The notes: generated by a model not told the origin, from the letters alone. Positions 17,941 through 57,834 are shown, numbered from the stretch's first letter. The stretch: DNA of 64,000 nucleotides from Flavobacteriaceae bacterium (GCA_040880345.1 JBBDIQ010000034.1:20566-84565); one strand, 5' to 3'. A program made the numbers and translations.

Positions 17941-18001
17941 GCTACAGATACGCTATACATCCGCTATAAATTTGCTATATATACGTTATAAATATGCTAT
18001 A
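17941..18001 (+). repeat. Six G(C/T)TA(T/C)A hexamers at exact 11-bp period
   Basis: Starts at 17941, 17952, 17963, 17974, 17985 and 17996. Confidence 0.8.
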
Positions 18002-18059
18002 GCTATTGTATATCTTAGCTTTTTGTATTACTTTGGTACTCACTTTAATACTTAAAATT

Positions 18060-19375: not shown

Positions 19376-19425
19376 GGTTTACTTCTATTCTGCACTTTAC
19401 TTGTTGTCTTTGGTTAGTATGATGT

Positions 19426-21291
19426 TCATTCATCGCGGGGTAGTTTGTTTTTGAGTTCGATTAGGAGTTTGTCTGCTATTTCTATTAATATGTTTGTTTT
19501 TTGTTTTTGTTTGAAGGGGTAGGTGTGTTGAATGGTTCTGTAGTGGTCGAGGAAGTTGAAGAAGGGGGTTTCCAGTTCCTGGAAGAGGTATTCGTAGCGT
19601 TTTAGATCGGGGTTGGCGTAGAGGCATAGTTGCCAGAGGGCTTTGCTGTGGAGGTTGTTTGGGTAGTAGCTTATGGTGGCGAAGAGGTAAGTTTTGCAGA
19701 AGGTTTGGAAAAACAGGGAGAATAAATTGGCTACGCCACTGTAATTGTCTGTTAGGCGGTCTGCCATTAATAGGAGTTGGTCGAACACCTTAACGGTTTG
19801 TTTATAGTAAAGCTCGAGGTCAGGATAGTATGGTGCGTATGGATGTTCCCAATGGGGTTTGGGGTGGTATGGTGATGTGGTGAAGATGCGGTTTTCTTCT
19901 TTTATTATTTTTTTGAAAAAATCTTGCTGGGCATAGAGCCATTCTTGTATCCAGCTGCGGGTGTGGGCTATAAGGACAAACTCTGCCTTGTTGCCGGTTT
20001 GGGCTTGTAATTTGTTGGTTAGGTCTTTTAGGAGTTGGTTGCTGAAGCCTTTGCCTATGAGCAATAGATAGTAGGTTTGGGTGTTGGCGTGGGTGGTGTG
20101 GTGAAATTGGTAGATTTCTTCGGGGGGGTTGGTTTTTTGGATGGTGGTTGTAACTAGATTGACGAGCCCTTCGATACAATTTTTATTTCGACTATCGTCG
20201 AAATAAAAATCACTCAGGGTGACGGCCCCTCGATACAATTTTCTCTCGACTTTGGTCGAGAGAAAATCACCAGCCGGAGGCGGGCACGCTCGGGTGACGG
20301 CGCTTTGTGTCTCGATACATTTTTCAATGCAGTTATCACTGCTTTGAAAAACACCAGCCTTCGCTAAAGCTTCGGTAGGCAGGCTCGACATGACAGCGCT
20401 TCGATACATTTTGCTTCGTTCCTCAGCAAAACAGTCAGCGTGACAGTGCTTAGATATCATTTTCTTTATCATTTTGAAACGGGTTTCGACCATTTCAAAT
20501 ACGCTTTGTTCTGCTATTTCGAAGGCTTTGTAGTGTTCGCTGCCGAAGAAGCATTCTGCTTCCAGGGAGGTTTTTTTGGCTTTTTCTATGAGGTCAATGA
20601 GGTGGAATGTGTTGCCGGATTTTTTTACGAAATGCTTTTGGATTTGGGGGGCGTATTTAGTGAGGTTGTGTATTCTTTCGTTTAGGGTTTGGTGGGTGTT
20701 TGGGGTGCCTGTATATAAGGATTCAAGATACTCCAAGTTGTGGTTTAGGAGGTTTTCATAGTGTAGCAATACTGCGGCGGAGCAGTCTGCGGCGAGCATG
20801 GGGAATAGTTGTGCCCGAAGGAGCTCATGGTCGTGGTGGAATTGTTGTTTGTAGGCTTTGTATTTTTTGCGGTGTTTCTTTTTGTCTGCGGGGTATAACA
20901 GCAGGTGGTTTTCCAGGTCTTTATTGGTATAAATGAGTGCTGCAGGTTGGCAATAGGCAAAAATGAAGGGATTGCCGATTTTGTATTCCTGGTTGAGTTG
21001 GGTGCTATAAAAAACGTGTACAAAGGTATGATGCCGGTTGTGTAGTTTGGTGACCCATTTTTGCTTTTGGAGGGTGCCGGCTTCGTGTTTGGACTGCAGG
21101 TGGACTATGAGGCGGGCGTTTTCGTGTGTGGTTTGTGGGGTGAAAAATAATTGGACTACCCGGTGGCGGTTGATGAGTTGTGGGAGGAGTTGTTTTAGAT
21201 AGGGGTTATGTAGGTGGGGAAGTTCCTTTTGGTTTCCCTGTTGTAACGAGAATAATTGTTCCGTAGCGGTGTTAGTGTATAAATCTGACAT
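19426..21291 (-). CDS. Two-lobed hypothetical protein, possibly degenerate nucleotidyltransferase/HEPN-like, with an in-frame repeat insertion
   Basis: Uninterrupted frame (621 aa from ATG 21291). Each half has a beta-rich segment (EEIYQFH..YYLLLIG) followed by a helical segment; about 95 aa in the linker are translated DNA repeats. Family call from memory of similar flavobacterial proteins. Confidence 0.55.
   Translation of the reverse strand: MSDLYTNTATEQLFSLQQGNQKELPHLHNPYLKQLLPQLINRHRVVQLFFTPQTTHENARLIVHLQSKHEAGTLQKQKWVTKLHNRHHTFVHVFYSTQLNQEYKIGNPFIFAYCQPAALIYTNKDLENHLLLYPADKKKHRKKYKAYKQQFHHDHELLRAQLFPMLAADCSAAVLLHYENLLNHNLEYLESLYTGTPNTHQTLNERIHNLTKYAPQIQKHFVKKSGNTFHLIDLIEKAKKTSLEAECFFGSEHYKAFEIAEQSVFEMVETRFKMIKKMISKHCHADCFAEERSKMYRSAVMSSLPTEALAKAGVFQSSDNCIEKCIETQSAVTRACPPPAGDFLSTKVERKLYRGAVTLSDFYFDDSRNKNCIEGLVNLVTTTIQKTNPPEEIYQFHHTTHANTQTYYLLLIGKGFSNQLLKDLTNKLQAQTGNKAEFVLIAHTRSWIQEWLYAQQDFFKKIIKEENRIFTTSPYHPKPHWEHPYAPYYPDLELYYKQTVKVFDQLLLMADRLTDNYSGVANLFSLFFQTFCKTYLFATISYYPNNLHSKALWQLCLYANPDLKRYEYLFQELETPFFNFLDHYRTIQHTYPFKQKQKTNILIEIADKLLIELKNKLPRDE
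20160..20450. repeat. Array of four palindromic REP-like units inside a CDS
   Basis: TCGATACA at 20171, 20230, 20312, 20401, each followed by a hairpin and ending in TGAC (20220, 20295, 20391, 20441). Confidence 0.9.
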
Positions 21292-21462
21292 ACAAATTAA
21301 ATTTAAGGTTACACATTGTTCATAATACGCTACATAAAGTTCGTTTATAATCAATAATGCAGTGTATAACGAAACAAATATATACTAATAAGAACAATTT
21401 TAAAAATATTTAATTAATTATTTTTGTTTTTTACGCTATTTACATAGTTTAAAACGATTCAA

Positions 21463-21681
21463 ATGACATCTAAAATGCAAATAAATAGAATTAGAGTTGT
21501 GCTTGCCGAAAAAGATAGGACTAACAAGTGGCTAGCTGAGAAAGTAGGTAAAAATAGAACTACAGTATCAAGGTGGTGTACTAATGATATGCAACCCTCA
21601 TTGGAAACACTAGTAGAGATAGCGGAAGCTTTGGATGTTGATATTAGAGAGCTACTTAATACAACAAAAAGTTCTATTTGA
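21463..21681 (+). CDS. Xre/Cro-family HTH transcriptional regulator
   Basis: NRIRVVLAEK..TNKWLAEKVGKNRTTVSRWCTN..QPSLETL..IA. Confidence 0.92.
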   Translation: MTSKMQINRIRVVLAEKDRTNKWLAEKVGKNRTTVSRWCTNDMQPSLETLVEIAEALDVDIRELLNTTKSSI

Positions 21682-21901: not shown

Positions 21902-22032
21902 ATTACAAGTTTTCAAAGTTTAGATAAAAATAACCTTCAATTGAGTTAGCAATAAGTAAAAATGTAGACTTAGTATCTATCGTTCTTTTATATATTTGCT
22001 CAGAGTAATTAATTACAGATTCCATAATTTGT

Positions 22033-22073
22033 TAATTTAATGTTACAAATGTAACATTAAATTATTACATTTG
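22033..22073 (+). promoter_or_regulatory. Perfect 15-bp inverted repeat abutting a -7 box
   Basis: TAATTTAATGTTACA-AA-TGTAACATTAAATTA (22033-22064), then TACATTTG (22066-22073), 10 nt before ATG 22084. Confidence 0.7.
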
Positions 22074-22083
22074 AAAGTTATTC

Positions 22084-22263
22084 ATGAAGATTAACACCGA
22101 AAAACTATTAACCGTTTCAAACTATTCAAAACTTAAAAATCTAAGTCGACAACACGTTTATAGGCTTATAAATAACAATGAGCTTACACTCGTCAAGATT
22201 GATGGAATTAGCTTTATTTATATGGATGAGAAGGCTGTAGATTTTGTCAAGAAGAGAGAATAA
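22084..22263 (+). CDS. 59-aa putative DNA-binding protein (excisionase/MerR-like HTH), not in the ORF track
   Basis: MKINTEKLLTVSNYSKLKNLSRQHVYRLINNNELTLVKIDGISFIYMDEKAVDFVKKRE; LTV..Y.....SRQ.VY.LI..L pattern. Confidence 0.7.
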   Translation: MKINTEKLLTVSNYSKLKNLSRQHVYRLINNNELTLVKIDGISFIYMDEKAVDFVKKRE

Positions 22264-22375: not shown

Positions 22376-23740
22376 ATGGCGGAATTTAAGAGCAAAAAAA
22401 TAGAGAAAATTATTGATGAAATCATTGATCAGTATGCTTATGCTGACACAACTGATAGACCCTGGATTATCGGGTTTAGTGGTGGCAAAGATTCTACTGT
22501 TTTACTAACATTAGTTTGGATCGCACTTCAAAGAATTAGAGAAAGAAATCCTTATCCTTATCAATTAAGAAGACCTGTTCATGTGGTTTGTAATGACACT
22601 ATGGTTGAAAATCCAATTATAGCGTCTTATGTTGAAGATGTTTTAACTAAAATTGATACAGAAGCAAGAGAACAAAATCTTCCCATTTTTGTTAAAAAGA
22701 CAACTCCAAAACTTGAAGAATCCTTTTGGATCAATGTAATTGGTAAAGGATACCCGGTGCCTAATAATACTTTTAGGTGGTGTACTGATAGATTGAAAAT
22801 AAAACCAACATCAGACTTTTTGTTAGAAAAAATTGATGAAAAAGGAGAAGCTATTGTTCTTTTAGGCACTCGTTATGAAGAGAGCGCAACAAGAGAACGC
22901 TCAATGAAAAAGCACGAAATTGATGGGAAAAGACTGTCTCGACACACAACTAATATCAATACTTATGTGTATGCTCCAATAAAAGAATTAATGCTTGAGG
23001 AAGTGTGGTACATTATTAATGCTATACCATCACCTTGGAAGTTTGATAATTCTATATTGTTTCAAATTTATTCTGATGCCAGTGCAGATGATTATGAATG
23101 CCCCACAGTCGTCACCAACAAAGAACACTCATCTTGTGGACAAAGTAGATTTGGCTGCTGGACGTGTACAGTAGTTAAAAAAGACAAATCAATGTCAGCT
23201 TTAATCGACAATGGTCAAAATTGGATGATGCCCTTATTAAAATTTCGTAACGATCTGGTTGACAACAGAAACTTAAGTGAAAACAGAATGGCCACCAGAA
23301 GAAATGGAATGCCTGCTGTAACAGAAGATGGGCATAAACAAGGTAATTATTCACCAGAATATCGCGCAAGAATGTTGAAAGAGCTTTTAGAAATTCAAAA
23401 AGACTTGCAAGTTGAACGGCCACATATAAATTTAATTACGAATCAAGAATTAATAGCCATTCAAGTTACTTGGAATCGAGATATGATTTTTGATCATAAT
23501 GTTGGAGATATTTATAAAAAAATATTCAAAAAAGATATTAGTACAAGCAACATCAAAGCACTTGATGACACCGAACGTAGAATTTTGAAAGACATTTGTA
23601 GTGAAGACGCTGAATATTATCACCTCATTGATAATTTAATCACGCTCCAAGAAAGTAAAACCTTGATGCTTTCAAAATATGGATTGCATAATGATGTTGA
23701 AAATAGAATTGAAAACTTTGTCAAAGAGAATCAACTATGA
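22376..23740 (+). CDS. dndC: DNA phosphorothioation sulfurtransferase DndC
   Basis: PAPS-reductase-like IGFSGGKDS, RWCTDRLKI, SRFGCWTCT; upstream of dndD. Confidence 0.93.
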   Translation: MAEFKSKKIEKIIDEIIDQYAYADTTDRPWIIGFSGGKDSTVLLTLVWIALQRIRERNPYPYQLRRPVHVVCNDTMVENPIIASYVEDVLTKIDTEAREQNLPIFVKKTTPKLEESFWINVIGKGYPVPNNTFRWCTDRLKIKPTSDFLLEKIDEKGEAIVLLGTRYEESATRERSMKKHEIDGKRLSRHTTNINTYVYAPIKELMLEEVWYIINAIPSPWKFDNSILFQIYSDASADDYECPTVVTNKEHSSCGQSRFGCWTCTVVKKDKSMSALIDNGQNWMMPLLKFRNDLVDNRNLSENRMATRRNGMPAVTEDGHKQGNYSPEYRARMLKELLEIQKDLQVERPHINLITNQELIAIQVTWNRDMIFDHNVGDIYKKIFKKDISTSNIKALDDTERRILKDICSEDAEYYHLIDNLITLQESKTLMLSKYGLHNDVENRIENFVKENQL

Positions 23741-25842
23741 AAATAAGCAGAGTACAATTTAATAATTTTAGGATTTACAGAGGAAGTAATGAAATATCAT
23801 TTTCTTCAACTGATTCGAAAAACATAAGTCTTATTGCAGGAAAAAATGGCTTTGGCAAAACCACTTTTTTAACTTCACTTATATGGGCATTTTATGGAAA
23901 GCTCATGGGCCAAGTTGAAGAAAAGTATAAAAAGGATATTAAGACTGCCGGGGGCTATGATAATTATGTAACTTCTCTTTTAAATAATAACGTAAAATGG
24001 GAATTTGAAAACGGTAAAAAAGCCACGCCTTTGGTTTCTGTAGAAATAGAATTAAAGGATTTATTAATTCCCACCATACCTTGTAGGACTGTAACTGTAA
24101 AAAGGTCATTCGATTTAAGAACTAACGAAGAAAAATTAAGTATTTTAATAGACGGTCTAGAGAATGAGTTGACCAAAGAAGTTGGTTATGAAGTTTTTAT
24201 AAATGACTTTATTCTGCCAAGAGAAATTGCTAAATTCTTCTTTTTTGATGCGGAGAAAATAGTTTCACTAGCCGAGGCCAAATCAAAATCTGAATTAAGA
24301 AGCTTAAGTAAAGCTTACTCTGAGGTGCTTGGAATCAAAAAATATGAGGAATTAAAAAGCAATCTTGAAGGGCTTTTAATTAAACTAAGAAGACGCGGTG
24401 TAAAGGAGGTTGAGAAGTCTAAATTAGACGAACTCATTGAACAAGTTAACAATGACCAAAAGCAAATTGAAAATAATCGTGAAAATCAAGAAAGTCTAGA
24501 TTTACAAATTGCCCTATTAAAAACGAAAAGTGACAACCTTCAAGAAAAGTTAATAAGAGAAGGCAACTCAATTACCCTTGAAGAGTTAAAGGATTTGAAG
24601 AACTCACGAGAAACCCTAAAATCTGAATCCAAAATAATTAAGAACAAGCTTAAAAAGCTTTTAGATATAATGCCATTTGTGATTGCCGGCAAAAAGCTAA
24701 CTGAATTATACAACCAAATGGCTTTAGAAAGCAGTTCAACTTCTGGAAAATCAGATTCAGAATTAATTCAAAATGAAATCAATGAGTTTTCAAATAGAGT
24801 ATTAAAAGACGCAAAGAAACTTTTTGAAGATCAGAAAACAATTGTAAGTATTGAAAAGTTACTGAATAAAAGTAAAAGTTCAATTCACGTTGAAAAAAAC
24901 AAAACTAAGGTCAGTAAAACTAAAGTACTATTGGATTTTAATGAAGAACAAGTAAGAGAATTTCAAGCCATTGTTGCGAATATCAAAACGTCTTATTTGT
25001 CTCAATTTAATGCCATAGTTCAAGAAGAAAAAAACAACAGGGTACTTTTGAGCAGAACGATCAATAAAATCAAACAAGCGGAAGCAAGAAAAGGAAACCA
25101 AATTGCAAAAGAATACCGGGAAGAAAAAGACAGGACAGACTCTGAGATTTTTAATTTAACAGGTTTAAAAAATAACCTAATTGAAAAATTAGGAGGATTG
25201 CTTGTAAAAGCAGCAACAAATAAAAAAGTACTTTCTGAATATGAGAAAAATTTCAATTTAGTTGAAACAGATAAAAAGAAATATGAAGTCACAGAAAAAC
25301 TGCTTAAGAAAATCAATGAGTTAATTCAAAAAATCAAACAAGAGAAAAAATATGCTTTACAAAAATCAATTTCACTTGGCTTAAGAAACTTGATGCATAA
25401 GGAAAATTTTGTGTCTAACGTGCGAGTTAACATCCAGGAGGATATTATGGATATTGATTTGTTAGATGAACGTGGAAATATTATTGATAAAGACAGTCTC
25501 TCTAAAGGGGAGCAGCAGCTTTATGCAACAGCATTATTAAAAGCGCTTGTTGATGAATCAGGAATTAGTTTTCCTGTGTTTATTGACAGCCCGCTACAGA
25601 AGTTCGATAAACACCATTCAAAAAACATTTTAAAGGAGTTCTACCCTTCAATCTCTGAGCAAGTAGTATTGTTTCCTTTATTAGAAAAAGAGCTCTCAGA
25701 AGATGAGTATGAGCTGTTAAAGAAGAATTTAAACACTTCTTATTTAATTATAAATAATGCACAAGGCTCCACATTTAAAAAAGTAGCTGACAACAAATTA
25801 TTTCAAGAATTTAAAAAGACAAGCGATGTTTACGCATATTAG
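23737..25842 (+). CDS. dndD: DNA sulfur modification protein DndD (SMC-like ABC ATPase)
   Basis: Walker A GKNGFGKTT, FFFFDAEKI, coiled coil, LSKGE signature, FIDSP Walker B. Confidence 0.92.
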   Translation: MKISRVQFNNFRIYRGSNEISFSSTDSKNISLIAGKNGFGKTTFLTSLIWAFYGKLMGQVEEKYKKDIKTAGGYDNYVTSLLNNNVKWEFENGKKATPLVSVEIELKDLLIPTIPCRTVTVKRSFDLRTNEEKLSILIDGLENELTKEVGYEVFINDFILPREIAKFFFFDAEKIVSLAEAKSKSELRSLSKAYSEVLGIKKYEELKSNLEGLLIKLRRRGVKEVEKSKLDELIEQVNNDQKQIENNRENQESLDLQIALLKTKSDNLQEKLIREGNSITLEELKDLKNSRETLKSESKIIKNKLKKLLDIMPFVIAGKKLTELYNQMALESSSTSGKSDSELIQNEINEFSNRVLKDAKKLFEDQKTIVSIEKLLNKSKSSIHVEKNKTKVSKTKVLLDFNEEQVREFQAIVANIKTSYLSQFNAIVQEEKNNRVLLSRTINKIKQAEARKGNQIAKEYREEKDRTDSEIFNLTGLKNNLIEKLGGLLVKAATNKKVLSEYEKNFNLVETDKKKYEVTEKLLKKINELIQKIKQEKKYALQKSISLGLRNLMHKENFVSNVRVNIQEDIMDIDLLDERGNIIDKDSLSKGEQQLYATALLKALVDESGISFPVFIDSPLQKFDKHHSKNILKEFYPSISEQVVLFPLLEKELSEDEYELLKKNLNTSYLIINNAQGSTFKKVADNKLFQEFKKTSDVYAY

Positions 25843-26221
25843 AACTAGTAAAGAGAATAAAGAGGTGGTTTCTAATTTAACAAGAAAACTAAACCTAGGA
25901 ACAGAAAATATCGTAGCAAGAATTGCCCTTACATATTCGCTTTCTCAAGACAGAAAACTAGATTTAATCGCGATTGAAAACTCAAGTGGTAAAGAATATT
26001 CAAAGAGTGTGTTATTTGGTAATTATGTAGATTATTATGTTGGTTTAGTTGCTGTGCATTATGGTCTTTATATCACCGACAAAGACCTGCCAAAATACAT
26101 CAAAATGCACATTGATGATGGGCTACAGCTTTTGGATGAAGAAGTGTCCTCAAACTCTAATTTGGATGGGTTTGATTTTTTGGTTGAGAAAATTGAGATA
26201 GGTATACAATCGATAACTTAA
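25826..26221 (+). CDS. dndE: DNA sulfur modification protein DndE
   Basis: 131 aa, ENIVARIALTYSL, GKEY, HIDDGL; overlaps the dndD stop. Confidence 0.88.
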   Translation: MFTHIRTSKENKEVVSNLTRKLNLGTENIVARIALTYSLSQDRKLDLIAIENSSGKEYSKSVLFGNYVDYYVGLVAVHYGLYITDKDLPKYIKMHIDDGLQLLDEEVSSNSNLDGFDFLVEKIEIGIQSIT

Positions 26222-26223
26222 AA

Positions 26224-29049
26224 ATGCATGAAAAACTTCTTAACGAAAGTCAAGCAGCAATTAAGCTTGGTATTACTAAAGAACTACTATATTCTTATGT
26301 TAGAACTGGAGTTAATGGAAGTAAACTGAAAGCAATATCAAGTAAAAGGGAAATTAAATTTCTTGAATCAGAATTAGATAAATTCGAAACTTTTTTAAAA
26401 GGTAAATGGGTAACAAATGCTAAAGAAAAAAGACCTTCAATACCTAAATTCATAAAGGAGTTTTTAAAAGTTGAGTCAAATGGACAATGTGCTAGGTGTT
26501 TTTCAGGACATCGTCTAGATGATGCTCATATAATTCCTTGGTCAAAATCATTTTCACATTTTCATCATAATTTAATTAGGCTATGTACAGATTGTCACGT
26601 GAAATATGATGATGGAATAATTTCAGAGCAAGAAATCAATGATATTAAGAGGGGATTAATTGAAAAGCTGAAAAAATCCCTTTTAATTGAAGATAATTTA
26701 TTTACAGATTCACTTCATTCAATTCCTAATCCTGATTTGAATTTTGTTGGTAGGGAAGCTTATATAACTAATATTGAGGCCACAATAAAGGGTGAAAGAA
26801 TATTATGTGTCACAGGTCCAGGTGGTATTGGAAAAACAGAGTTGTTAATTAAATCATTGGAAAAACATAAACAATTAGTAAAATGGTTTAAAACAGAAGG
26901 ACATAATTCAATACAAGATTTAAAGCGTGAAATTTTAATTGAATTTAATTCTAGCTCCTTTTCAGAATTGTATTCCTTTTTAGACGAATTGGGTTTGATT
27001 TTAGTATTTGATGGGCTAGAGAATTTAATTAATAATGATAAAGATAAAACGCTTGATTTTATAGGGGATTTATTTAGATATACTTCAAAAGTTAGATTAA
27101 TTATAACAACCCAAGTTAATATTGAAGATTACTCATTTAAAACTAAAAGTATTAAGGTTAAAGGGTTAACTAAAGCTGAGTCCAGTTTACTTTTAAAAAG
27201 TGCTTTACCAGAATTTAAATTGGAAGATTTAGATTGGGTCAATAAATTTTCAAATGGTCATGTCCTAACAATAAAACTGTTAATTGGTTTAATTAGATTT
27301 TACCAAGATTCTCAGAAAGTAAAGAATAAATTAAAAGAAAAAGGGGTTGACTTTATCTCTTCTCCCTCGAGAATACAGCAAAATATTAAATCATCTCTTA
27401 ATCTTTGTTTGAGGATAAGCTATGAGGCTCTAAATGATTCAGAACAATATATTTTAGTTCTTTTGACAAATTTCCCAGGAGGCGTTAAAGAGTATTTTCT
27501 TGATAACTTTAAAAAAGATACTTTTTTTGAAGATGTTAATATTGATGATTTTGATCGTATAGTAGCAAGATTAAACCAATTTAATTTAATTGATAAGGAA
27601 TTTGACCCATTGAATCAAAGTAGATTATTCTTGATTAATCCAATCAGACAGTTTGTAATGTCTGAGATTAAGAGAAAATCATTAAAAACTTGGCATAGAT
27701 TAAGAATTATTGCATTTGAAAATTTAATGATGGAAACATTGGCTATTTATAGCCATAATGTTCAAACAGAAAGATGGGAATATGCAATTTTAAGATACGA
27801 GGTAGAACTTACGAACTATATTTATTCAATTAAATGTTCAATTCATTCTGCATATTGTGAGAAGTGTATAAAACATAGTGATAAGAAGGAATATTTGAGA
27901 ATTATTACAGGATTTGCAGGAGGGTTATACAAATACTTATTTACAAGAGGTCATTATTTATATGGATTAAAGATTAATGAAGAAGGAGCGAAAGCTCATA
28001 TGGAATTAGGTGAGTATGATTTAGCATTGGAAGATTTGACAATGTTAGCTCAACTCTATATTAGAAATGATGATATGAAAAACGCTCAAAGGATTCTTGA
28101 GCAAATGAAACATTGTAGCTTGAAAATAAATGATTCCTATAAATTATTTTACATTTATCTAGTTGAAGGACAAATTATTAAAAAAACTCAGCCTGAGAAC
28201 TCTATAAATTTATTTTTTAGAGCGTTGGAATTGTTATCTATCTCATCATATGATACTGACTTTAAAAATTCAAACACAGCTCTTTTAAATGCTGAAATAG
28301 GAAGGATTTACGAAACTTGTTATGGAGATTTTGAAACAGCACTTGAGTATTATACAAAGGCTTCTAATATTTATAATGGCATTAAAGATTATTCAAATTT
28401 GTACTCTTGCTTTTATCATATTGGTAACTGCTATTCCAATAAATGCGATTTTAAATTGTCTCTTAAATATTACAGAAAAAGTTTGATGGGATTTATGAGG
28501 ACTGGTCAAAAACAATATATTGGAAATGCTTTGTCAGAAATAGCTCGTTTGAGAGTAGACTACCCAATATTAGATTATAGTTTCATTGATAAAAACATAA
28601 TTAATTCTGGATTAATGGATATTCAAGAAGAAATTAAATTATCATTAAAAACTAATCCAAATTTAGAACAGTATCATTTAAATTCAGGTCTTTCAAAAAA
28701 TCAAATTTATAAGTTATGGTCTATTATTAAACTTGCAAGCTTTACTAGCCATTTGGTATTAATAAATGATTGGTGTAATGGACTTTTGAATAGTATTCAA
28801 AATGATAAAGATATAAGATTTTCATACCCTTGGTTTTTCTTAAACATAGCACTGCTCGTAAGCCAAATTGAAAAAAAGGAAAGTATAGATGAGAACATAA
28901 AGTCTATTAAACAACTTTGCTATTTACATGGGGGAGAAGTAGAGCATGATATTTTTGACCCATTTAAATGGTTGGCTTTATGGCTAGATTACAAAGAAAT
29001 AGAAAAGACAACTAGGGGTCAATTGTTTGCAGAGATTGAAATTTTATAA
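26224..29049 (+). CDS. HTH-HNH endonuclease-NB-ARC (STAND) NTPase-TPR protein
   Basis: N-terminal HTH; CARC..AHIIPW....N...LCTDCH (HNH); GPGGIGKT, LVFDGLE, IITTQ, GHVL, SYEAL; C-terminal TPR-like helices. Confidence 0.8.
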   Translation: MHEKLLNESQAAIKLGITKELLYSYVRTGVNGSKLKAISSKREIKFLESELDKFETFLKGKWVTNAKEKRPSIPKFIKEFLKVESNGQCARCFSGHRLDDAHIIPWSKSFSHFHHNLIRLCTDCHVKYDDGIISEQEINDIKRGLIEKLKKSLLIEDNLFTDSLHSIPNPDLNFVGREAYITNIEATIKGERILCVTGPGGIGKTELLIKSLEKHKQLVKWFKTEGHNSIQDLKREILIEFNSSSFSELYSFLDELGLILVFDGLENLINNDKDKTLDFIGDLFRYTSKVRLIITTQVNIEDYSFKTKSIKVKGLTKAESSLLLKSALPEFKLEDLDWVNKFSNGHVLTIKLLIGLIRFYQDSQKVKNKLKEKGVDFISSPSRIQQNIKSSLNLCLRISYEALNDSEQYILVLLTNFPGGVKEYFLDNFKKDTFFEDVNIDDFDRIVARLNQFNLIDKEFDPLNQSRLFLINPIRQFVMSEIKRKSLKTWHRLRIIAFENLMMETLAIYSHNVQTERWEYAILRYEVELTNYIYSIKCSIHSAYCEKCIKHSDKKEYLRIITGFAGGLYKYLFTRGHYLYGLKINEEGAKAHMELGEYDLALEDLTMLAQLYIRNDDMKNAQRILEQMKHCSLKINDSYKLFYIYLVEGQIIKKTQPENSINLFFRALELLSISSYDTDFKNSNTALLNAEIGRIYETCYGDFETALEYYTKASNIYNGIKDYSNLYSCFYHIGNCYSNKCDFKLSLKYYRKSLMGFMRTGQKQYIGNALSEIARLRVDYPILDYSFIDKNIINSGLMDIQEEIKLSLKTNPNLEQYHLNSGLSKNQIYKLWSIIKLASFTSHLVLINDWCNGLLNSIQNDKDIRFSYPWFFLNIALLVSQIEKKESIDENIKSIKQLCYLHGGEVEHDIFDPFKWLALWLDYKEIEKTTRGQLFAEIEIL

Positions 29050-29051
29050 TA

Positions 29052-30812
29052 TTATTTTTTTGGCTTAAATGTTTTTACATCCTTTAAAAACTCAAAAATT
29101 GTCTTAATACCATGTTTTGTAGAGGGGATTTTCAAACTCCCTTTCGGAAAAGATTCTGAATTACTAGGTTTGGTAACTTTGTCTATTTTCTTCTTTAAAG
29201 CTTCTAGTTCTTTTTTCGTATCATTTAATGAAATACCTTTATCAAAAAGATAATATCTCAAGAGACGAATAAATGCTGAAACATATTTTGAGGAAATTAA
29301 GAAAGTACTTGTATCCTTTTTCCAATCATATTTAAACACCTGCCTCACATAATTAAAGTATTGGTCTAAAATACTTTTAGACTTCCTACATAATTCTAAA
29401 GGGTGCTTATCAAAATGTGTTCTTTTTTTTCCAAAAATATTCTCAAATTCTTTTTCAGTTATACTTTTTTTATTTGTTTTTAGGCCTTTTATAAAAGGTA
29501 TTAAATCATTATCAACAATTGTAGTTATTGGAATACTTGGAAGATTAAATTTGTTTTTTCTATTGAGAGAATTTGTTAAAAAAACGTTCCCTAGAGGTTT
29601 AGATTCAGATGAATTATTACATAATAGAATTATTTTCCCAGCAAGAGCTTCACTATCTTTTTCACCCAAAACATCGTATTTTATTAGATAGATTAAGTTG
29701 TTTTTAACTCTTGCTTGATTTGAGTTTATTTCAACAAACACTTTTGCAGCATTTTTAGTTATATCTTCAATTTTAGTTGTTTTAAATTTAATTGCAGTTG
29801 CTAAAATTTCAGATTTTTCAAGTGTTAGTTGGCTAATATTATTTTTTGTGTATCCATAAAGTCTATGTTGTCCATCTATGATATCAATAGAACTGAATTT
29901 TTTAGGGATTGATAATTTAGTAATACCGCCATTAGTCTCTTCAGTACATTCATTGCTTAATACTAGGGTAATAGTATTTGGAAAGAGCTTTCTTTTATCA
30001 TCATCAATAAAATTTTTAGAAATATTCTCAATCTTACTTTCTATCAATAATCTTTGATAGTTGTGTTTGGTATTTTCTTCTTCTAAAATAAATGGGATAC
30101 CCTCATATCTAGAAACCCTTGCAATTCTTAGTAGTTGGTCAACTGTAAATTTTAGTAAATAAACATCAGCTTTTACTTTATTCCCTGTAATGTATTTATT
30201 ATCCGCTTTTAAGAAGTCTAATTTTATTGATTCATCACTTTCACCATATTCCTCAGGTGTAAACTCCATTGATGATAGAAATTCATTTTTTGAATGGTGA
30301 CCAATTAAATTGGAAAGTTGTCTTAAATATTCAAGTGTATTAGGTTTAATAATGTATAAGCTTTTTTGTATATCTGGATAATCAGGAAAATCAGCTCTAG
30401 TTAGTTCTTCGTTTTGTATTTTAGAATTGGTTCCGAAATAAACATATTTAAAATTTTCTACCTCTTTAAAGTCTTCTAATTTATTAGCTGGTATATTAAA
30501 AAGTTTAAACTTCTCTTCTAATGAGAGATGGCTTGAGTTGATTAAAAGGTTTGAGTTTCTATTAAATTTTTTGATTTTTGATTTGAATCCACTATTTTCT
30601 GACGTGTATTCAAGTAATAAGCAAGTTTTATTTATTAGTAAAACCCCATCTATTTCTAAGTGATTACCTCTAGATTGAGTAGGGTCTAATAGTGACAATT
30701 CTATTTGACCAGGGCTAGGATAATAATCCTCAAACCCTAAATCATTCTTTATAAAAGATTGAAACCAATCCTCAAGTTTTTTACCAGTTAAATCTTCAAA
30801 AGGTTTTGCCAT
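29052..30812 (-). CDS. DGQHR-domain (DndB/PbeA-like) protein with N-terminal nuclease-like region
   Basis: YQR, FPNTI, IIDGQHRLYG, FVEINSNQ motifs; N-terminal EIDGVL..LLEY. Confidence 0.82.
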   Translation of the reverse strand: MAKPFEDLTGKKLEDWFQSFIKNDLGFEDYYPSPGQIELSLLDPTQSRGNHLEIDGVLLINKTCLLLEYTSENSGFKSKIKKFNRNSNLLINSSHLSLEEKFKLFNIPANKLEDFKEVENFKYVYFGTNSKIQNEELTRADFPDYPDIQKSLYIIKPNTLEYLRQLSNLIGHHSKNEFLSSMEFTPEEYGESDESIKLDFLKADNKYITGNKVKADVYLLKFTVDQLLRIARVSRYEGIPFILEEENTKHNYQRLLIESKIENISKNFIDDDKRKLFPNTITLVLSNECTEETNGGITKLSIPKKFSSIDIIDGQHRLYGYTKNNISQLTLEKSEILATAIKFKTTKIEDITKNAAKVFVEINSNQARVKNNLIYLIKYDVLGEKDSEALAGKIILLCNNSSESKPLGNVFLTNSLNRKNKFNLPSIPITTIVDNDLIPFIKGLKTNKKSITEKEFENIFGKKRTHFDKHPLELCRKSKSILDQYFNYVRQVFKYDWKKDTSTFLISSKYVSAFIRLLRYYLFDKGISLNDTKKELEALKKKIDKVTKPSNSESFPKGSLKIPSTKHGIKTIFEFLKDVKTFKPKK

Positions 30813-30826
30813 TTTAAGTAGTTATT

Positions 30827-31282
30827 TTAATTATCTAAGGAATCCAATAGGAAGTTGATATAATCATTTGGATGATTAAAATAGTCTGGATTAGAACTAA
30901 TTTTTCCGTGTATTATCTCAAAACCACCATTAGCAAACTCTTCAATTGTTTTGTTTAATTCTGTGACATCTTGCAAAATTTCATGGCCTTTTTTAGCTAC
31001 AGCAAAAAGTATTAATGATTGAAAAATCCTTTCTCCATTATTATTAATGGTTGTATACTTAAAAGTCTCTTTTTTTAAATCACCTTCTAATGGTTTACTG
31101 ACTCCTTCAATAAATCCTAAAGTTGCAGCCCAAGCAAATGGCATCCATTGCTGCTTAAAATATTTAGTTTTATCTTGCTCTTTAACTCCTTCACTTGTAG
31201 CAAATTTTGCTACGATATTCTCATAGTCAAACATTTCCATTTTTGGCGAAATGTTTTGTATATCCATGTATATTGTTGACAT
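30827..31282 (-). CDS. DndE-like / phosphorothioation-associated small protein
   Basis: 151 aa, FAWAATLGF and IEEFANGGFEII motifs; overlaps the ATPase stop. Confidence 0.62.
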   Translation of the reverse strand: MSTIYMDIQNISPKMEMFDYENIVAKFATSEGVKEQDKTKYFKQQWMPFAWAATLGFIEGVSKPLEGDLKKETFKYTTINNNGERIFQSLILFAVAKKGHEILQDVTELNKTIEEFANGGFEIIHGKISSNPDYFNHPNDYINFLLDSLDN

Positions 31283-33390
31283 TACTTTATAGGATTTATT
31301 ATTGTGTAACTATTTATTATAGAAGACTCACCTGGTGTGTCAGATGACTTCTCAATTGTATGAATAGATTTAGTAAACTCTTCATTTTTATATGCATCAA
31401 TTTCAAGGTGTATATCTTTTAGAATAACTAATCCTTGAGTAAAATTTTCAGATACAGATTTAATAAATGGCTTTGTTATTGTATCATCAAAATTTGAAGT
31501 AGGAGCATCTACTATAAAAGGATAACTTTCACCTTTATATTCATTAGATAACTTTAATACAGAGCTTATTAGTGACATTTTCGCTAATGTTTCTTGAGCT
31601 CCATGACCAGGATTTGGATTGCCATCTTTATCAACAAATGAGATGGAATAATCATCTTTACTGATTTTAACATATAGTACTATTATATCATTGTCTTTTG
31701 ACTGTTGGATAATACTTTTCTGAATTTTGTTGGCTTCATTTTCAATTTTCTCAATGAGATCATTTTTTTCTATATCAACTTTTTTATCAATGATTTGCTT
31801 GATTTCATACAAATAATTTAAAGACTTCTTCTCAGGTATTTCATTAACATCTATTTCTTCAAGACCAACTAATTCCTCAAACTTTTTATTTAATCCTCTT
31901 ATTTCAGACTCTAGTCCTCTAACCTGCTTATCATAAAACTCTTTTTGACTTCTTTTAGTTGCTAGGTCACCTTTTACTCTTTGAATTGCACTAGTGATAG
32001 TCTTTGGGTCTAATTCCAGTATTTGATAGCCTTTTTCTTTTATTAAATCTTCAATCTTCTCTTTTGTCTTTTTTAGTGCTTCATTAATACTAGCAATTTC
32101 ACCTTCTTTTTCCTTATTTCTTAAAATATGATTTTTTAAATCCCGCTTTATATCTGAAGTTGATGTTTTTATTGGAGAAATGTTTTTCACAATGTCCATA
32201 ACTTTCTCATTCAAGTCCTCAACTTCGTCTGAAAGAAGATTCTTAACTTTTTTATTTTCATCAAGATGCGTTTCGATAATTTTGATTAAATCAGGATTGT
32301 CTTTTTCTGTAGTTCCACATATCAAACATTTTCTCTCTTTAACCATTCTTCTAATTAAATGGTCTCCAGGCACTCCTAACTCTAATTGCTCTCTACTTAC
32401 AGCGATTTCATTTTGTCGCCAAGAAATAAATTTCCTCAACTCAACCTCTGCCTTATCTAGCAGAGGATGACTTTTAGCAATTATCCATTTATTGATAAAT
32501 AATTGCTTACTCTCCTTATCTATTGTTTCTAAATTGTCAAATGCTCTTTTTCTTTGGTATTCTAATCTATTCTCCTCTTCTTTTAAATCAGGAAAACCAG
32601 CAACAAAACTTAATTTTTCAGTATATTCCTTTTCCTTTTCCTCAAGCTTTTCAATATCAATTTTGGCCTGTTTAAATTTATCTTTTTTGGCTGTTAAATC
32701 TCTTTGTTTTGATTCTAAATCATAGTTTAATTGTTGAGACTTTTTTTGGTCTCTAGCATTCGCTTGTAGTTTATTTCTATATTTTCTATCAGTTTTTTCA
32801 ATTATATCATCAATTATTCTTGACATTCTTGAAAATAGAGGTAGATAGGATATTTGTTTAACTGCTTGTTCAAGAGTATTTGGGTTTGAGAAGTCAATTA
32901 ATTGATTAAGGGTCTCACCCTTAAACAACAAATACTTTCTTAATTTTTCTGGAAAAAGTTCGTCTAGTTTTGATTCAACTTCCCTTCTATCCAAAATCAC
33001 TTTTGAATTACCAGTTCTTGGTTCTTCAAAACTTATCGAAGTATTGATTTCTTGGATTTGACAGTCATTATTTTTAATTGTATATACATTTTCTTTCTTA
33101 ATCCTATATACAATGCTATCCTCTTCAACAAAAATAGTAACACTAGATTCTATCTGGTTTATATTTTTTTGTAAGGATTCAAACTCAAACTTTTTATTTA
33201 AAATAAAATCTTCATCAATATTGTCTTTGAAAGACATGCTATCAAGTAAAACCCACTGAAACGCTTCATATAAACTTGTTTTTCCTGTTCCAATTTTACC
33301 AGAAACAATATTAAGTCCATTTTTAAAATTGAAGACTTGATTGCCATAATAAGACTTGAAATTATTTAGTTCAACTTTCTGTATTATCAT
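31282..33390 (-). CDS. SMC/DndD-like AAA ATPase with central CxxC zinc hook
   Basis: NFKSY, Walker A GKIGTGKTS, LLFKGE, CLICG in mid coiled coil, FIVDAP Walker B/D-loop. Confidence 0.85.
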   Translation of the reverse strand: MIIQKVELNNFKSYYGNQVFNFKNGLNIVSGKIGTGKTSLYEAFQWVLLDSMSFKDNIDEDFILNKKFEFESLQKNINQIESSVTIFVEEDSIVYRIKKENVYTIKNNDCQIQEINTSISFEEPRTGNSKVILDRREVESKLDELFPEKLRKYLLFKGETLNQLIDFSNPNTLEQAVKQISYLPLFSRMSRIIDDIIEKTDRKYRNKLQANARDQKKSQQLNYDLESKQRDLTAKKDKFKQAKIDIEKLEEKEKEYTEKLSFVAGFPDLKEEENRLEYQRKRAFDNLETIDKESKQLFINKWIIAKSHPLLDKAEVELRKFISWRQNEIAVSREQLELGVPGDHLIRRMVKERKCLICGTTEKDNPDLIKIIETHLDENKKVKNLLSDEVEDLNEKVMDIVKNISPIKTSTSDIKRDLKNHILRNKEKEGEIASINEALKKTKEKIEDLIKEKGYQILELDPKTITSAIQRVKGDLATKRSQKEFYDKQVRGLESEIRGLNKKFEELVGLEEIDVNEIPEKKSLNYLYEIKQIIDKKVDIEKNDLIEKIENEANKIQKSIIQQSKDNDIIVLYVKISKDDYSISFVDKDGNPNPGHGAQETLAKMSLISSVLKLSNEYKGESYPFIVDAPTSNFDDTITKPFIKSVSENFTQGLVILKDIHLEIDAYKNEEFTKSIHTIEKSSDTPGESSIINSYTIINPIK

Positions 33391-33401
33391 AACTTAATTT
33401 T

Positions 33402-33599
33402 TTAACTAAATAAATCAACTATATTATTAGTTTGAGCTTTAATATTGGGGTCTATATTTTCTCCTCTATCTTCTTTAACAGCTAAATCTATAACTCTGTT
33501 AAGAATATCATTTAGCACTTTTTTGTCTAATTCATTCTCTTTATTATCTTCTATTAAACTTTTAAAAGAATCAAATATTTTTTTCTGATATGTTGGCAT
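33402..33599 (-). CDS. 65-aa hypothetical protein in the defence operon
   Basis: Tight packing (4 and 11 nt gaps) between the helicase and ATPase genes. Confidence 0.7.
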   Translation of the reverse strand: MPTYQKKIFDSFKSLIEDNKENELDKKVLNDILNRVIDLAVKEDRGENIDPNIKAQTNNIVDLFS

Positions 33600-33603
33600 A
33601 ATT

Positions 33604-35892
33604 CTATTTGTTATCTATTTCTATTAATTCATTTATTAAGCTGAAAATGTCTAAGTTATATAATTCTGTTAATTCAACAAGTTTTTTTATATCACTATTT
33701 CTTTGTATATGTAAATCGGACAAATTTTCACTTGCATATAAAAAATTTGCTACTCTATAAAGTTCATTCCTAAAAATATTAATTTCCATTTTTTGGAGCT
33801 TTTCTCTCTTATCCTTTGGAAATAAATTCCAATATGAGATATCATTGGGTTCTATAATTAGGTCATAAACAGTTGCATATTCTTTTCCATCATTGTTTCT
33901 TAATATTCTACCTCTTCTTTGAATAAATTGTCTAGGGTTTCCTGTGCTTGCACAGAAAATTGCACATTTAGTGGCTGGAATATCCACACCTTCATCTAAT
34001 GTCTTCATAGCAGTTAAAACCTGTATTAATCCATCATTAAATTGTTTTAGAATATTTTCTCTCTCTAACATATTCATCCCTCCAATAATTTGATGGGTTC
34101 TAATGCCTAAGTTTTGTATAGTAGTGTTATAATCATCAATAATTCTTAAGTCTTCATCATCTGTTACAGAAATGTCAGTTATTGAGTAATCAGGTTCAAA
34201 CCCTTCAGGCACATAAACGATGGTGTGTTTGAAGTCTTTATCATTTATTTCTTTTAGAATTTCAATTAACTTATCTTTCTTGTTTGATGCTTGGTGTATT
34301 ATTCTTTTTCGTTGAATTAAAAGATTAGAGGCTTCCTCTTTGTAAGTGCCTTTTTCAAAATCAAAAAACTTCAATAATCTTTCTGAATACTGAGCATAAG
34401 CTTCCATCTCAGTTTCATTTAATTTGATAAACTTCGGAGAGTAAAAGTAAGGAGTTAGAAAACCACTTTTAATAGCTTTTAACATTGTGTAACTAAATGT
34501 ATGATTTGGAGAAAAAGAATTAAAGTATTTTTCAATCTCATAAGTCCCTGACTCATCAAAGTTTCTGTTGGGAGTTGCAGATAGCCCTATTCTTTTATTT
34601 ATTCCAAACAAGTAGTTACTGATAGATTTTTTTGTGCCAAGGTTGTGAGCTTCATCAGCTATTAATATAGTTTCTTGACACTTGAAATTTTCGAATATTT
34701 TTTGAAATTTTTTACCATTATAGGAAGCATATGTTGATATAAATATGTAATTGGAGTTAATTCCTAATCTTTTTTCAAGCTGAATAGTTTTTAGTTTATC
34801 TTGCCAATTTTTGTCATAAGTAGTAAAAATATTATTGAAATTAAACTTTTTACATTCATTTATCCATTGATTGACTAGAATCTGTGTTGGCACTAAAATA
34901 ATAGCATTATAAAACCCACTAATTTTATATTCCTCTAAAACAGCGTTTAAAGAAGTTAATGTTTTACCAGTTCCAGTCGCCATCGCAAATATACCTTTAC
35001 AATTATTTTCCGCCCATTTCTCATATGCTTGTTTTTGGTAATCTCTTGGCCCTTCATCAAAAGGAAACCTAGGTTCATTCTTTATTTTAAAAAGTAATTC
35101 TTTAAACTCTATCGCCTTCTTTTTCTTGATTGTTATTATTCTTTCTGAATATGTGTAATCCTCATTTTCATTTTCCTCTATAGTTGCTTTAATCAAATCT
35201 TCGAGGCTTTTATTTTCTCCAAAATCATCAATAAGTTCTTCAATATCTTTATTATCTAAATACTTGTATGATGGATGTTTTCGATTAAAGACTTCATCAA
35301 ACAATGAAATCTGTTCATCAACACGTTCTTCAAATATTTTATTTATCCATGGCACGTCTACATTAAAACTTTCACCATTTTTAACGATTCCGGCAGGTGT
35401 AAAGTTCATGCTGCCCATAGTCAAAATTGCATCTGTGTCATCATAAAACAACATTGCTTTTTTATGACTTAAATCTTTTTTACCAAAATAGACTGGCTGT
35501 AATTGTAACCTCCCATTTCTTTTTAAATATTTTAAACAATCAAAAAACAATTTACCTTTTGAATCTAATGCTTCCTTTAGTTTCTTTAAATCACCTAATA
35601 CTTCACTTATATCATTGAGGTAATCAGCTCCATCATCATTTAATAAATTTTCTTTGTCTAAGGGGGAGTAAAAATGATTAGTAATAATCCTCATTGAACC
35701 CCCATTGTATATAAACTCAGCAAAAGATTCTGATAAAATGCTAAAGGTATAAGAGTTGAAATAACCTAAAAAAAGATCGATCCGTTTTGAAACTGGAAAA
35801 GCTTGATTGTAAAATTCAAATGGCACATGTTCAGAATCTGAACTGTAAGAGTAAGTCTTTGGGAATTTTATATCTTTTAAGCTGTTGGTCAT
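33604..35892 (-). CDS. PLD(HKD)-nuclease-like domain fused to an SF2 DEAH helicase (phosphorothioation-associated restriction enzyme type)
   Basis: HKKAMLFYD..GSMNFT; ATGTGKT, IADEAH, LSATP, LDEGVDIP, QFIQRRGRILR. Confidence 0.87.
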   Translation of the reverse strand: MTNSLKDIKFPKTYSYSSDSEHVPFEFYNQAFPVSKRIDLFLGYFNSYTFSILSESFAEFIYNGGSMRIITNHFYSPLDKENLLNDDGADYLNDISEVLGDLKKLKEALDSKGKLFFDCLKYLKRNGRLQLQPVYFGKKDLSHKKAMLFYDDTDAILTMGSMNFTPAGIVKNGESFNVDVPWINKIFEERVDEQISLFDEVFNRKHPSYKYLDNKDIEELIDDFGENKSLEDLIKATIEENENEDYTYSERIITIKKKKAIEFKELLFKIKNEPRFPFDEGPRDYQKQAYEKWAENNCKGIFAMATGTGKTLTSLNAVLEEYKISGFYNAIILVPTQILVNQWINECKKFNFNNIFTTYDKNWQDKLKTIQLEKRLGINSNYIFISTYASYNGKKFQKIFENFKCQETILIADEAHNLGTKKSISNYLFGINKRIGLSATPNRNFDESGTYEIEKYFNSFSPNHTFSYTMLKAIKSGFLTPYFYSPKFIKLNETEMEAYAQYSERLLKFFDFEKGTYKEEASNLLIQRKRIIHQASNKKDKLIEILKEINDKDFKHTIVYVPEGFEPDYSITDISVTDDEDLRIIDDYNTTIQNLGIRTHQIIGGMNMLERENILKQFNDGLIQVLTAMKTLDEGVDIPATKCAIFCASTGNPRQFIQRRGRILRNNDGKEYATVYDLIIEPNDISYWNLFPKDKREKLQKMEINIFRNELYRVANFLYASENLSDLHIQRNSDIKKLVELTELYNLDIFSLINELIEIDNK

Positions 35893-36066
35893 TTGCTAGT
35901 AAAAATAGGGATTTTTAAACAATTCAAAACTTTAGTTTTTTCAAATTTAAAAAAGCAGTAGGTAATTACTTTACGGAATTCCTCATTCCCTGAAAAAACT
36001 TTCCTCCAAGTCACTTCCATAAAAAAGGCTGTATAGTTCTTTCAGGACGGCTCAGCTCAGGAGATG

Positions 36067-57802: not shown

Positions 57803-57832
57803 TATCTTTGATAGTATCATATGATACTATCA
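57803..57832 (+). promoter_or_regulatory. fic promoter -7 box and perfect 24-bp palindrome
   Basis: TATCTTTG at 57803-57810; TGATAGTATCATATGATACTATCA at 57809-57832; ATG at 57835. Confidence 0.72.
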
Positions 57833-57834
57833 CA

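Follow-up and report, generated by a model that had tools for sequence, protein, structure and literature searches.

What is the five-gene operon that faces the DNA phosphorothioation genes dndC, dndD and dndE in a Flavobacteriaceae bacterium (GCA_040880345.1, JBBDIQ010000034.1:20566-84565), and is it a new defence system? The stretch analysed, referred to as the window, is 64,000 nucleotides (nt) long. The original prediction had read the operon as a candidate phosphorothioate (PT)-linked defence module combining a PLD-type helicase with a Pbe-like gene set. We found it to be a new bacterial instance of a known system, DndCDE-PbeABCD, in a recurrent five-gene variant with an uncharacterised extra gene. 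The main value of the analysis is therefore corrective: the combination of a PLD-helicase with Pbe is PbeABCD and not a novel system. As predicted, the operon consists of five open reading frames (ORFs) on the minus strand, running from 35892 to 29052 and encoding proteins of 762, 65, 702, 151 and 586 amino acids (aa) in that order, with gaps of 4, 11, −1 (the two ORFs share one base) and 14 nt. It is convergent with dndCDE, which lie 2.8 kilobases (kb) away on the plus strand. The two arms do not abut, however, and a gene for a 941-aa protein (26224-29049), omitted from the prediction, stands between them. The main features are:

33604..35892, minus strand: pbeA, 762 aa, single-HKD (PLD-like) nuclease domain fused to a superfamily 2 (SF2) DEAH helicase
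33402..33599, minus strand: pbeB, 65 aa, small acidic protein, assigned by position and size
31282..33390, minus strand: pbeC, 702 aa, zinc-hook ABC ATPase
30827..31282, minus strand: pbeD, 151 aa, 'DNA phosphorothioation-associated protein 4'
29052..30812, minus strand: fifth gene, DGQHR protein, 586 aa
30237-30812, minus strand: N-domain of the fifth protein (aa 1-192), putatively restriction-endonuclease-like
29256-30185, minus strand: DGQHR/DndB-ParB-like domain of the fifth protein (aa 210-519), with a helical C-terminus beyond it
22376-23740, plus strand: dndC
23737-25842, plus strand: dndD
25826-26221, plus strand: dndE

The PLD-type helicase encoded by the first gene is PbeA itself. 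It matched the PADLOC PbeA model PDLC02706 with an E value of 2.5e-236 (residues 15-728 on positions 2-712 of 722) and TIGR04095 dnd_restrict_1 ('DNA phosphorothioation system restriction enzyme') with 1.3e-114, and its Pfam matches were to ResIII, Helicase_C and, weakly, PLDc_2. The HKK...D...GSMN signature corresponds to H143/K145/D151/G160-S161-N163 and the DEAH motif to residues 413-416; H143, K145, D151, G160, S161, N163, the Walker A sequence MATGTGKT, D413/E414/H416 and motif VI (QRRGRxLR) are invariant across 14 PbeA homologues. Identity to the haloarchaeal plasmid copies is about 30%. The original prediction was right that the arm is PT-linked, faces dndCDE and resembles Pbe, and the motifs it named are all present, namely HKK and DEAH in PbeA, Walker A in PbeC and DGQHR at residues 313-317 of the fifth protein. 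The claimed novelty of a PLD-helicase joined to a Pbe-like set fell away, because that helicase is PbeA both by the PADLOC match and by the description in PMC10853773.

The 65-aa product of the second ORF matched no family model in the Pfam, PADLOC and TIGR/NCBIfam scans. The ORF is separated from pbeA by 4 nt and from pbeC by 11 nt, and its assignment as pbeB was made from its position and size. ORFs in the same position of 10 other pbe loci encode 58-70 aa with identities of only 8-22%, which fits the 'rapidly evolving small protein' described in PMC10853773. The third protein was matched over its full length by PADLOC PbeC models (E values down to 1.4e-33) and belongs to Pfam AAA_23. It contains a Walker A motif (GTGKT) and the sequence CLIC at 355-358; G34/G36/K37 of Walker A, D628 and the mid-coiled-coil cysteines C355/C358 are invariant in 10 PbeC homologues. 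Its earlier description as an SMC-like ATPase was correct as to the ATPase and can be narrowed to the CxC/zinc-hook ABC ATPase clade. The hook cysteines are spaced CxxC in the Bacteroidota proteins, whereas copies from alphaproteobacteria, cyanobacteria and haloarchaea have CxC, and the neighbouring DndD is without hook cysteines of the PbeC type. The fourth protein, PbeD, matched the PADLOC PbeD model at 8.4e-4 and TIGR04062 at 2e-5 (24.7 bits, under the 74-bit cut-off). It is 92% identical to the orthologue in the closest island (locus L092), which carries PF27807 DNA_S_mod_dnd_assoc_4. PbeD could be aligned over its full length with 16 orthologues, and PF27807 is found in most of those that have a precomputed Pfam call; 17 sequences retain the motif E114-E115-[Y/F]116-A117-N118-G119-G120, residue 116 of the window protein being F. 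An hhalign comparison of PbeD with DndE using shallow profiles placed 107 columns in register and was not significant (probability 0.6%, E value 0.09). That PbeD may be a cognate of DndE is taken from PMC10853773.

The order A-B-C-D within one transcription unit adjoining dndCDE is that of PbeABCD. Judged by family matches, motifs and order, the first four genes are the canonical pbeABCD in the canonical order. In the type system, from Haloterrigena jeotgali A29, PbeB has 66 aa, PbeD has 152 aa, PbeA combines PLD and helicase motifs and PbeC belongs to AAA_23 (Xiong et al., 2019; PMC6459918). The window resembles this DndCDEA-PbeABCD system in its four-gene order, the lengths of PbeB and PbeD (65 and 151 aa), its PLD-plus-helicase PbeA, its AAA_23 PbeC and its adjacent dndCDE. 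It differs in that the host is bacterial, that the arm converges on dndCDE where that of the type system lies downstream, that no dndA was found in the window, and that extra genes follow pbeD (586 aa) and dndE (HNH-STAND-TPR, the 941-aa protein). PbeABCD of the type system requires PT modification of host DNA and halts virus replication without degrading DNA (PMC6459918). The prediction had also ascribed a DGQHR component to PbeABCD, which is wrong, as neither DGQHR nor DndB appears in the description of the type system (PMC6459918). The same components make up the CxC ABC-ATPase/DndE-cognate systems of Krishnan, Burroughs, Aravind and co-workers. For these, PMC10853773 describes PbeA as an HKD endoDNase with an SF2 helicase, PbeB as fast-evolving, PbeC as an ABC ATPase with a CxC zinc hook and PbeD as cognate to DndE. 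According to the same paper, such systems are often arranged in tandem with modification systems of the DndD-DndE kind, with additional nucleases at the boundaries; the window is alike in this and unlike them in its CxxC, not CxC, hook. A second DndD/DndE-like scaffold and a destructive form of Pbe had been offered as new ideas, and both are hypotheses already published in PMC10853773.

The genes facing the arm were identified with similar searches. DndC scored 423 bits against TIGR03183 (cut-off 290) and 5.6e-144 against PADLOC DndC, and carries a PP-loop (SGGKDS) and CWTC; DndD reached 239.5 bits against TIGR03185, slightly under the cut-off of 245.85; and DndE matched Pfam DndE at 2.3e-25. 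We scanned 32 of the 35 window ORFs longer than 150 aa with Pfam and PADLOC, including the 10 largest of the 13 that lie beyond the island and its immediate flanks, and among them found no dndF, dndG or dndH, as had been predicted, and no cysteine desulfurase, dndA or dndB. Among 17 related pbe loci from Bacteroidota, Poribacteria and Deinococcota, dndCDE are adjacent in 15, and the other two (L004 and L086) end at a contig edge, in keeping with the proposed association of the arm with dndCDE. Two of the related arms are variants in their own right: in Pedobacter (L084, 3618-7087) and Sphingobacterium (L097, 15372-18793) PbeA has 478-481 aa and no PLD/HKD domain, ahead of the short pbeA come another DGQHR paralogue (448-449 aa) and an ORF encoding about 193 aa, and pbeC of L097 is cut by an insertion sequence (rve transposase).

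With the gene identities, their order, the intact catalytic motifs and the linkage to dndCDE observed here, the window island very probably provides a PT-based, restriction-modification-like defence of the DndCDE-PbeABCD type; PT dependence and mode of action are taken from the literature. In the papers cited here, dndCDE together with a cysteine desulfurase writes PT. In the window, dndCDE would write PT on host DNA with sulfur supplied by a housekeeping cysteine desulfurase encoded elsewhere, and pbeABCD would be the PT-dependent effector. The zinc-hook ATPase PbeC and its presumed DndE-cognate partner PbeD would form a DNA-scanning core, to which PbeA would contribute ATP-driven translocation and an HKD nuclease site. 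PbeA may also cut, since that site is intact. PbeB, small, acidic and fast-evolving, would be a regulatory subunit that modulates the complex.

In terms of the prediction's own criterion for refutation, four of the five genes map to a characterised system, PbeABCD, and the fifth belongs to an as yet uncharacterised family of DGQHR proteins found repeatedly after pbeD; it is the only part of the arm that adds something to the known system. Its product scored 83.4 bits against TIGR03187 DGQHR (cut-off 58.85) and was under the cut-off in every curated equivalog model tested, with 42 bits of a required 450 for TIGR04172 and 36 of 300 for DpdB (NF041060). The Pfam DndB model was matched only at positions 33-113 of 338. 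The signature of a DGQHR domain is a QR pair, the DGQHR pentapeptide and an FxxxN motif (PMC4619093), and the corresponding Q253-R254, D313-G-Q-H-R317 and F359/N363 are all invariant in 20 homologues, so the domain is complete. In the N-domain of the same homologues E53, D55, E68, T70 and K79 are invariant and E14 is near-invariant (at least 90%). Family members have about 570-590 aa, and 73 full-length relatives were found down to 27% identity, mostly in Bacteroidota. A profile of the N-domain (the first 192 residues) recovered 167 clusters (50% identity), in most of which the proteins are 545-620 aa long and have the domain at the N-terminus, and all 10 proteins tested from this search also contained a DGQHR domain. 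Small ORFs near other DGQHR genes (174 aa in L088, 194 aa in L084) were considered as split-off N-domains and rejected (hhalign probabilities of 0.1% and 2.3%).

The AlphaFold model of the fifth protein had a predicted local distance difference test score of 87.7 overall and 95.1 for the N-domain. The N-domain is modelled with the alpha-beta-beta-beta-alpha-beta order of PD-(D/E)xK nucleases, D55 standing before strand 2 and E68-x-T70 ending strand 3, and its top Foldseek hits were all PD-(D/E)xK nucleases (R.BspD6I, Can2, BstEII, PspGI, MunI, HamA and cap-snatching endonucleases). Pfam gave no match to the N-domain, and Foldseek with the whole 586-aa model returned nothing significant. The assignment of the modelled N-domain to this fold is only suggestive, because none of its Foldseek matches was significant.

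In design, not in membership, the fifth protein is like DndI and SspE, which join a DUF262 ParB-like NTPase to a DUF1524 HNH nickase (PMC11662687, PMC9646914): it would likewise place a ParB-superfamily NTPase module and a nuclease-type domain beside PT genes. In DndI, sensing of PT stimulates the ATPase and spares self DNA (PMC11662687). Unlike these enzymes, the window protein has the motif DGQHR rather than DGQQR, does not match DUF262 or DUF1524, and has its putative nuclease at the N-terminus, restriction-endonuclease-like, instead of a C-terminal HNH domain. Neither enzyme appeared among its top fold matches. Dnd-linked DGQHR proteins have been noted since 2011, when TIGR04172 was defined as dnd-dependent (PMC3226654), and a complete DGQHR domain and linkage to dnd are shared with the DndB, TIGR03187, PF14072 and TIGR04172 proteins. 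In contrast to TIGR04172 'DNA phosphorothioation-associated DGQHR protein 1', the window protein is about 200 aa longer owing to its N-domain and is encoded co-directionally with pbeD; over the DGQHR core, its identity to the TIGR04172 protein of a Pontibrevibacter plasmid is only 26%. By any of the tests run, it is not a member of DndI/SspE, DndB or TIGR04172. One relative, the metagenomic representative P0338 (662 aa), carries an extra N-terminal sulfur-binding domain (SBD; NF045808 'phosphorothioated DNA-binding restriction endonuclease' at positions 3-152, E value 2.3e-33, with HK and YP motifs). P0338 shares the SBD with SBD-HNH enzymes such as EcoWI and SprMcrA (PMC7461809) and has the N-domain and DGQHR core after it, at the place where those enzymes have their HNH nuclease; the window protein is without an SBD. 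This fusion ties the long DGQHR family to PT-DNA.

The fifth gene stands directly after pbeD on the same strand in 13 of the 17 loci examined (the window, L081, L083, L084, L085, L086, L090, L091, L092, L001, L002, L004 and L006). These span Flavobacteriia, Cytophagia and Sphingobacteriia among the Bacteroidota as well as Poribacteria and Trueperaceae (Deinococcota). The contig scan with the DGQHR alignment returned, among the matches listed, mostly distant DGQHR proteins of 750 aa, and the informative loci were L001, L002, L004 and L006. The distance from pbeD is 0-64 nt in the 13 loci, most within about 40 nt, and two divergent pbe lineages are represented. Outside cyanobacteria and archaea, family members of at least 27% identity to the window protein are found at this site beside dndCDE. 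Eleven of them contain dndCDE, either convergent or upstream in one long operon, and the other two reach a contig edge. In the four exceptions, which belong to the more distant members (27-37% identity), the cyanobacterial loci L005, L007 and L008 and the archaeal contig L003, the long DGQHR protein occurs alone. On the Pontibrevibacter plasmid the TIGR04172 protein is convergent on pbeD instead, and on a haloarchaeal plasmid a methyltransferase takes the place beside pbeD.

Comparison with the closest sequenced genome, that of Winogradskyella (L081), separates the fifth gene from its operon partners. At the nucleotide level dndCDE are 72-73% identical, and positions 29042-30825 of the window, which take in the DGQHR gene with 10-15 nt to either side and end 2 nt before the pbeD stop codon, are 78.6% identical; pbeABCD can be aligned only in short helicase-encoding stretches of pbeA. 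The protein identities are 83% for the DGQHR protein, 80% for DndC, 66% for DndD and 74% for DndE, against 44% for PbeA, 15% for PbeB, 25% for PbeC and 22% for PbeD. Because this comparison splits them, the fifth gene has had a different evolutionary history from pbeABCD in this island. Co-variation favours its affiliation with dndD and dndE (Pearson coefficients of 0.92 and 0.87 for DGQHR identity against DndD and DndE identity, Mantel p about 5e-4), whereas gene position favours pbeD.

Within the window's own pbeABCD lineage (PbeC relatives of 39-88% identity), the DGQHR gene is present in L092, and in L094, L095 and L096 (PbeC 39-63% identical by global alignment) another gene follows pbeD by 3-14 nt. 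These genes encode a RelA/SpoT-like protein (L094, 12703-13701; PADLOC PDC-S33), a 228-aa protein with a PADLOC TIR effector match of 1e-8 (L095, 12570-13256) and an HNH_4 protein (L096, 12573-13658). The arms of L092 and L094-L096 all face dndCDE, with DndC proteins 72-75% identical to that of the window. The RelA/SpoT-like, TIR-like, HNH or HNH-STAND-TPR genes that sister pbe loci hold there suggest that the position after pbeD behaves as an exchangeable slot for typical defence effector domains. In the sections consulted, PMC10853773 assigns DndB to DndD-centred systems and names no DGQHR, TIR, RelA/SpoT or STAND NTPase protein fixed after the DndE cognate, and a limited literature search found no paper on the DGQHR family of about 580 aa or on a fixed effector slot after pbeD.

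Taken as a whole, the island is probably the known DndCDE-PbeABCD defence with an accessory fifth gene. As to that gene's own role, we lean, at somewhat less than even chances, towards an accessory effector or sensor in the exchangeable slot after pbeD rather than a core Pbe subunit. We favour this role because the site after pbeD behaves as an effector slot, acidic residues of the protein are invariant, one relative is fused to an SBD and the gene lies in the pbe operon. The protein would act on or sense PT-DNA following the logic of DndI and SspE, with a ParB-like NTPase coupled to a nuclease, and would serve the arm as a further nuclease or as a switch that senses PT. A number of observations weigh against this account. 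PbeABCD of the type system works without a DGQHR gene (PMC6459918), and none of 23 plasmid records with PbeA contains a detectable homologue of the 586-aa family. In the N-domain, Thr70 stands where the (D/E)xK motif has its canonical Lys, the Foldseek matches have a best E value of 0.01 and template modelling scores of 0.2-0.45, and the family profile run against PDB sequences gave one chance match and no likeness to solved structures, those of DndI and SspE included. Any role of either predicted nuclease is putative, since the published Pbe phenotype is replication arrest without cleavage. On the modification side dndA is missing among the scanned ORFs, and the runs that contain the island sequence are of sediment-metagenome DNA only. 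Over 11 loci the DGQHR identities, by Spearman coefficient, follow DndD (0.75) and DndE (0.70) better than PbeA (0.47), PbeC (0.45) and PbeD (0.32), which fits a DndB-like role on the modification side equally well.

Could the fifth gene, then, be the island's functional DndB, a DGQHR regulator of dndCDE transcription or ATP supply that merely lies on the pbe strand, with pbeABCD alone as the restriction arm? DndB is an established DGQHR regulator. Besides the co-variation, all three DGQHR motifs are intact, no canonical dndB is present in the window or the related islands (an extra PF14072 protein occurs only in L084 and L097), and comparison with L081 shows conservation of dndCDE and the DGQHR gene but replacement of pbeABCD. 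We nonetheless regard this as rather unlikely. The gene follows pbeD on the pbe strand and never occupies the canonical divergent site upstream of dndC, even where dndCDE are on the other strand, and its 586-aa product has an extra conserved N-domain with invariant acidic residues. The TIR, HNH, RelA/SpoT and HNH-STAND genes found in the slot of sister lineages are not regulators, the SBD-fused member points to direct action on PT-DNA, and regulation could instead come from an XRE-type helix-turn-helix (HTH) gene and a promoter palindrome that precede dndC. Alternatively, both the fifth gene and its neighbour encoding 941 aa could be independent cargo of the defence island that inserted at a permissive convergent junction and has no functional connection to Pbe or Dnd. 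The solitary long DGQHR genes of cyanobacteria and the archaeal contig agree with this, as do the HNH-STAND-TPR genes, which lack dnd or pbe genes nearby in 29 of 35 metagenome loci and are absent from L092, and the variable content of the junction (HNH_4, Mrr_cat, HSDR_N_2). Yet every one of the 13 long DGQHR genes outside cyanobacteria and archaea follows pbeD on the same strand at 0-64 nt, the SBD fusion links the family to PT-DNA, and a 14-nt gap makes co-transcription with pbeABCD hard to avoid, so that we consider independent cargo improbable. Least probable, and very unlikely, is the view of the original prediction that all five genes constitute a single obligate PT-dependent system not described before, a destructive variant of Pbe; the assignment of the first four to PbeABCD already refutes most of it. 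The operon is tight (gaps of −1 to 14 nt) and the same gene order is seen in 13 loci representing at least three phyla; however, the PLD-helicase is PbeA itself, four genes suffice in the type system, unrelated genes occupy the fifth position in the closest pbeABCD relatives, all 23 PbeA plasmid records are without a detectable homologue, and the fifth gene differs in history from pbeABCD in the window island.

A bolder version of the effector/sensor reading, which we hold only tentatively, is that Pbe of the Bacteroidota type has a dedicated exchangeable effector slot and that the 586-aa protein in it combines a PT-sensing ParB-like NTPase with a nuclease of restriction-endonuclease fold, a third design beside SspE and DndI. 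If so, the fifth protein would turn the PbeCD scanning core into a DNA-cutting or suicide response, and this could explain why one Pbe system arrests replication without cleavage and others have nucleases. A swappable effector slot and a ParB-like partner would be handles on how Pbe senses PT and on whether it cuts DNA.

Further features of the island bear on its transcription and on the region between the two arms:

35942..35949, minus strand: TAAATTTG, a candidate −7 promoter element of the Bacteroidota type, some 49 nt before the start codon (ATG) of pbeA
26224..29049, plus strand: HNH-STAND NTPase-TPR gene, 941 aa, last gene of the dndCDE operon
21463-21681, plus strand: XRE-type HTH gene at the left island edge, 72 aa, Pfam HTH_3 4.7e-12
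22026-22071: near-perfect palindrome upstream of dndC, 22-nt arms with a 2-nt spacer
22066: TAnnTTTG (−7) motif overlapping the palindrome
22084-22263, plus strand: HTH-like 59-aa ORF upstream of dndC

The −7 elements are matches to the consensus TAnnTTTG in a regular-expression scan. None was found in the four inter-gene gaps of the arm, including that between pbeD and the fifth gene, and the three other matches on the arm strand are all inside coding sequence, at 34993 (pbeA), 33136 (pbeC) and 29439 (fifth gene). The fifth gene is predicted to be co-transcribed with pbeABCD, because the 14-nt gap leaves no room for a promoter. A scan for sigma-70-type promoters gave 88 matches against 77.6±11.1 in shuffled sequence and one for terminators gave 7 against 5.4±2.4 expected, neither above chance; no terminator was detected at the convergent junction. 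There, at 29049-29052, 2 nt separate the stop codon of the fifth gene from that of the 941-aa gene, with no terminator-like hairpin between them, so that transcription from either operon would enter the other as antisense. The XRE-type gene and the palindrome could be the regulator and operator of the island; the palindrome was not conserved in any of ten related loci.

The 941-aa gene starts 2 nt after dndE. Its protein has weak Pfam matches to HNH, AAA_22/nSTAND and TPR and also contains an HTH region, and H102/N116/H125 and G198-G201-G203-K204 are invariant in 14 homologues. The PADLOC Avs models did not match it. About 75 full-length homologues were found in Bacteroidota. The order dndC-D-E-HNH-STAND recurs in Sphingobacterium (L097) and in a metagenome locus (L119, 40% identity), and in four metagenome loci (L098, L103, L105 and L109) the family lies directly after pbeD. 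No dnd or pbe gene was detected nearby in the 29 metagenome loci mentioned above, the 35 being those with a full-length match. Possibly, the protein is an Avs-like effector that can dock onto PT systems.

The block of about 21.4-36.0 kb that contains these genes has a guanine-plus-cytosine (GC) content of 27-31%, and its flanks have roughly 36-52%. Since its GC content is far below that of the flanks, the block is a horizontally acquired island. We did not find att-like direct repeats flanking it, the repeats seen being short, AT-rich and at chance level, and no integrase was seen beside it in the window. The equivalent dnd-pbe islands of Winogradskyella (L081, 17340-21758) and Psychroserpens (L094, 1-343 and 21502-22142) adjoin tyrosine integrases and DUF3987/AAA_24 genes and for this reason look like parts of integrative elements. 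In support of a Flavobacteriaceae host from sediment, the housekeeping proteins of the window group with those of Planktosalinus and Arenibacter, and a type IX secretion system (T9SS) sorting domain is encoded in it. Just left of the island, at 17600-21400, the GC skew is unusually strong (+0.29 to +0.32). This stretch contains ORFs of 642 aa (19426-21354, minus strand, starting with TTG) and 278 aa (18006-18842), both without Pfam or PADLOC matches. Farther away are two more genes of defence type. A helicase of the UvrD type (681 aa; partial matches of GajB-like kind, 1.6e-19) is encoded on the minus strand at 48382-50427 beside an ORF of 242 aa that had no matches, and a Fic/DOC protein at 57808-58794 (plus strand) matches PADLOC SoFic at 2e-44.

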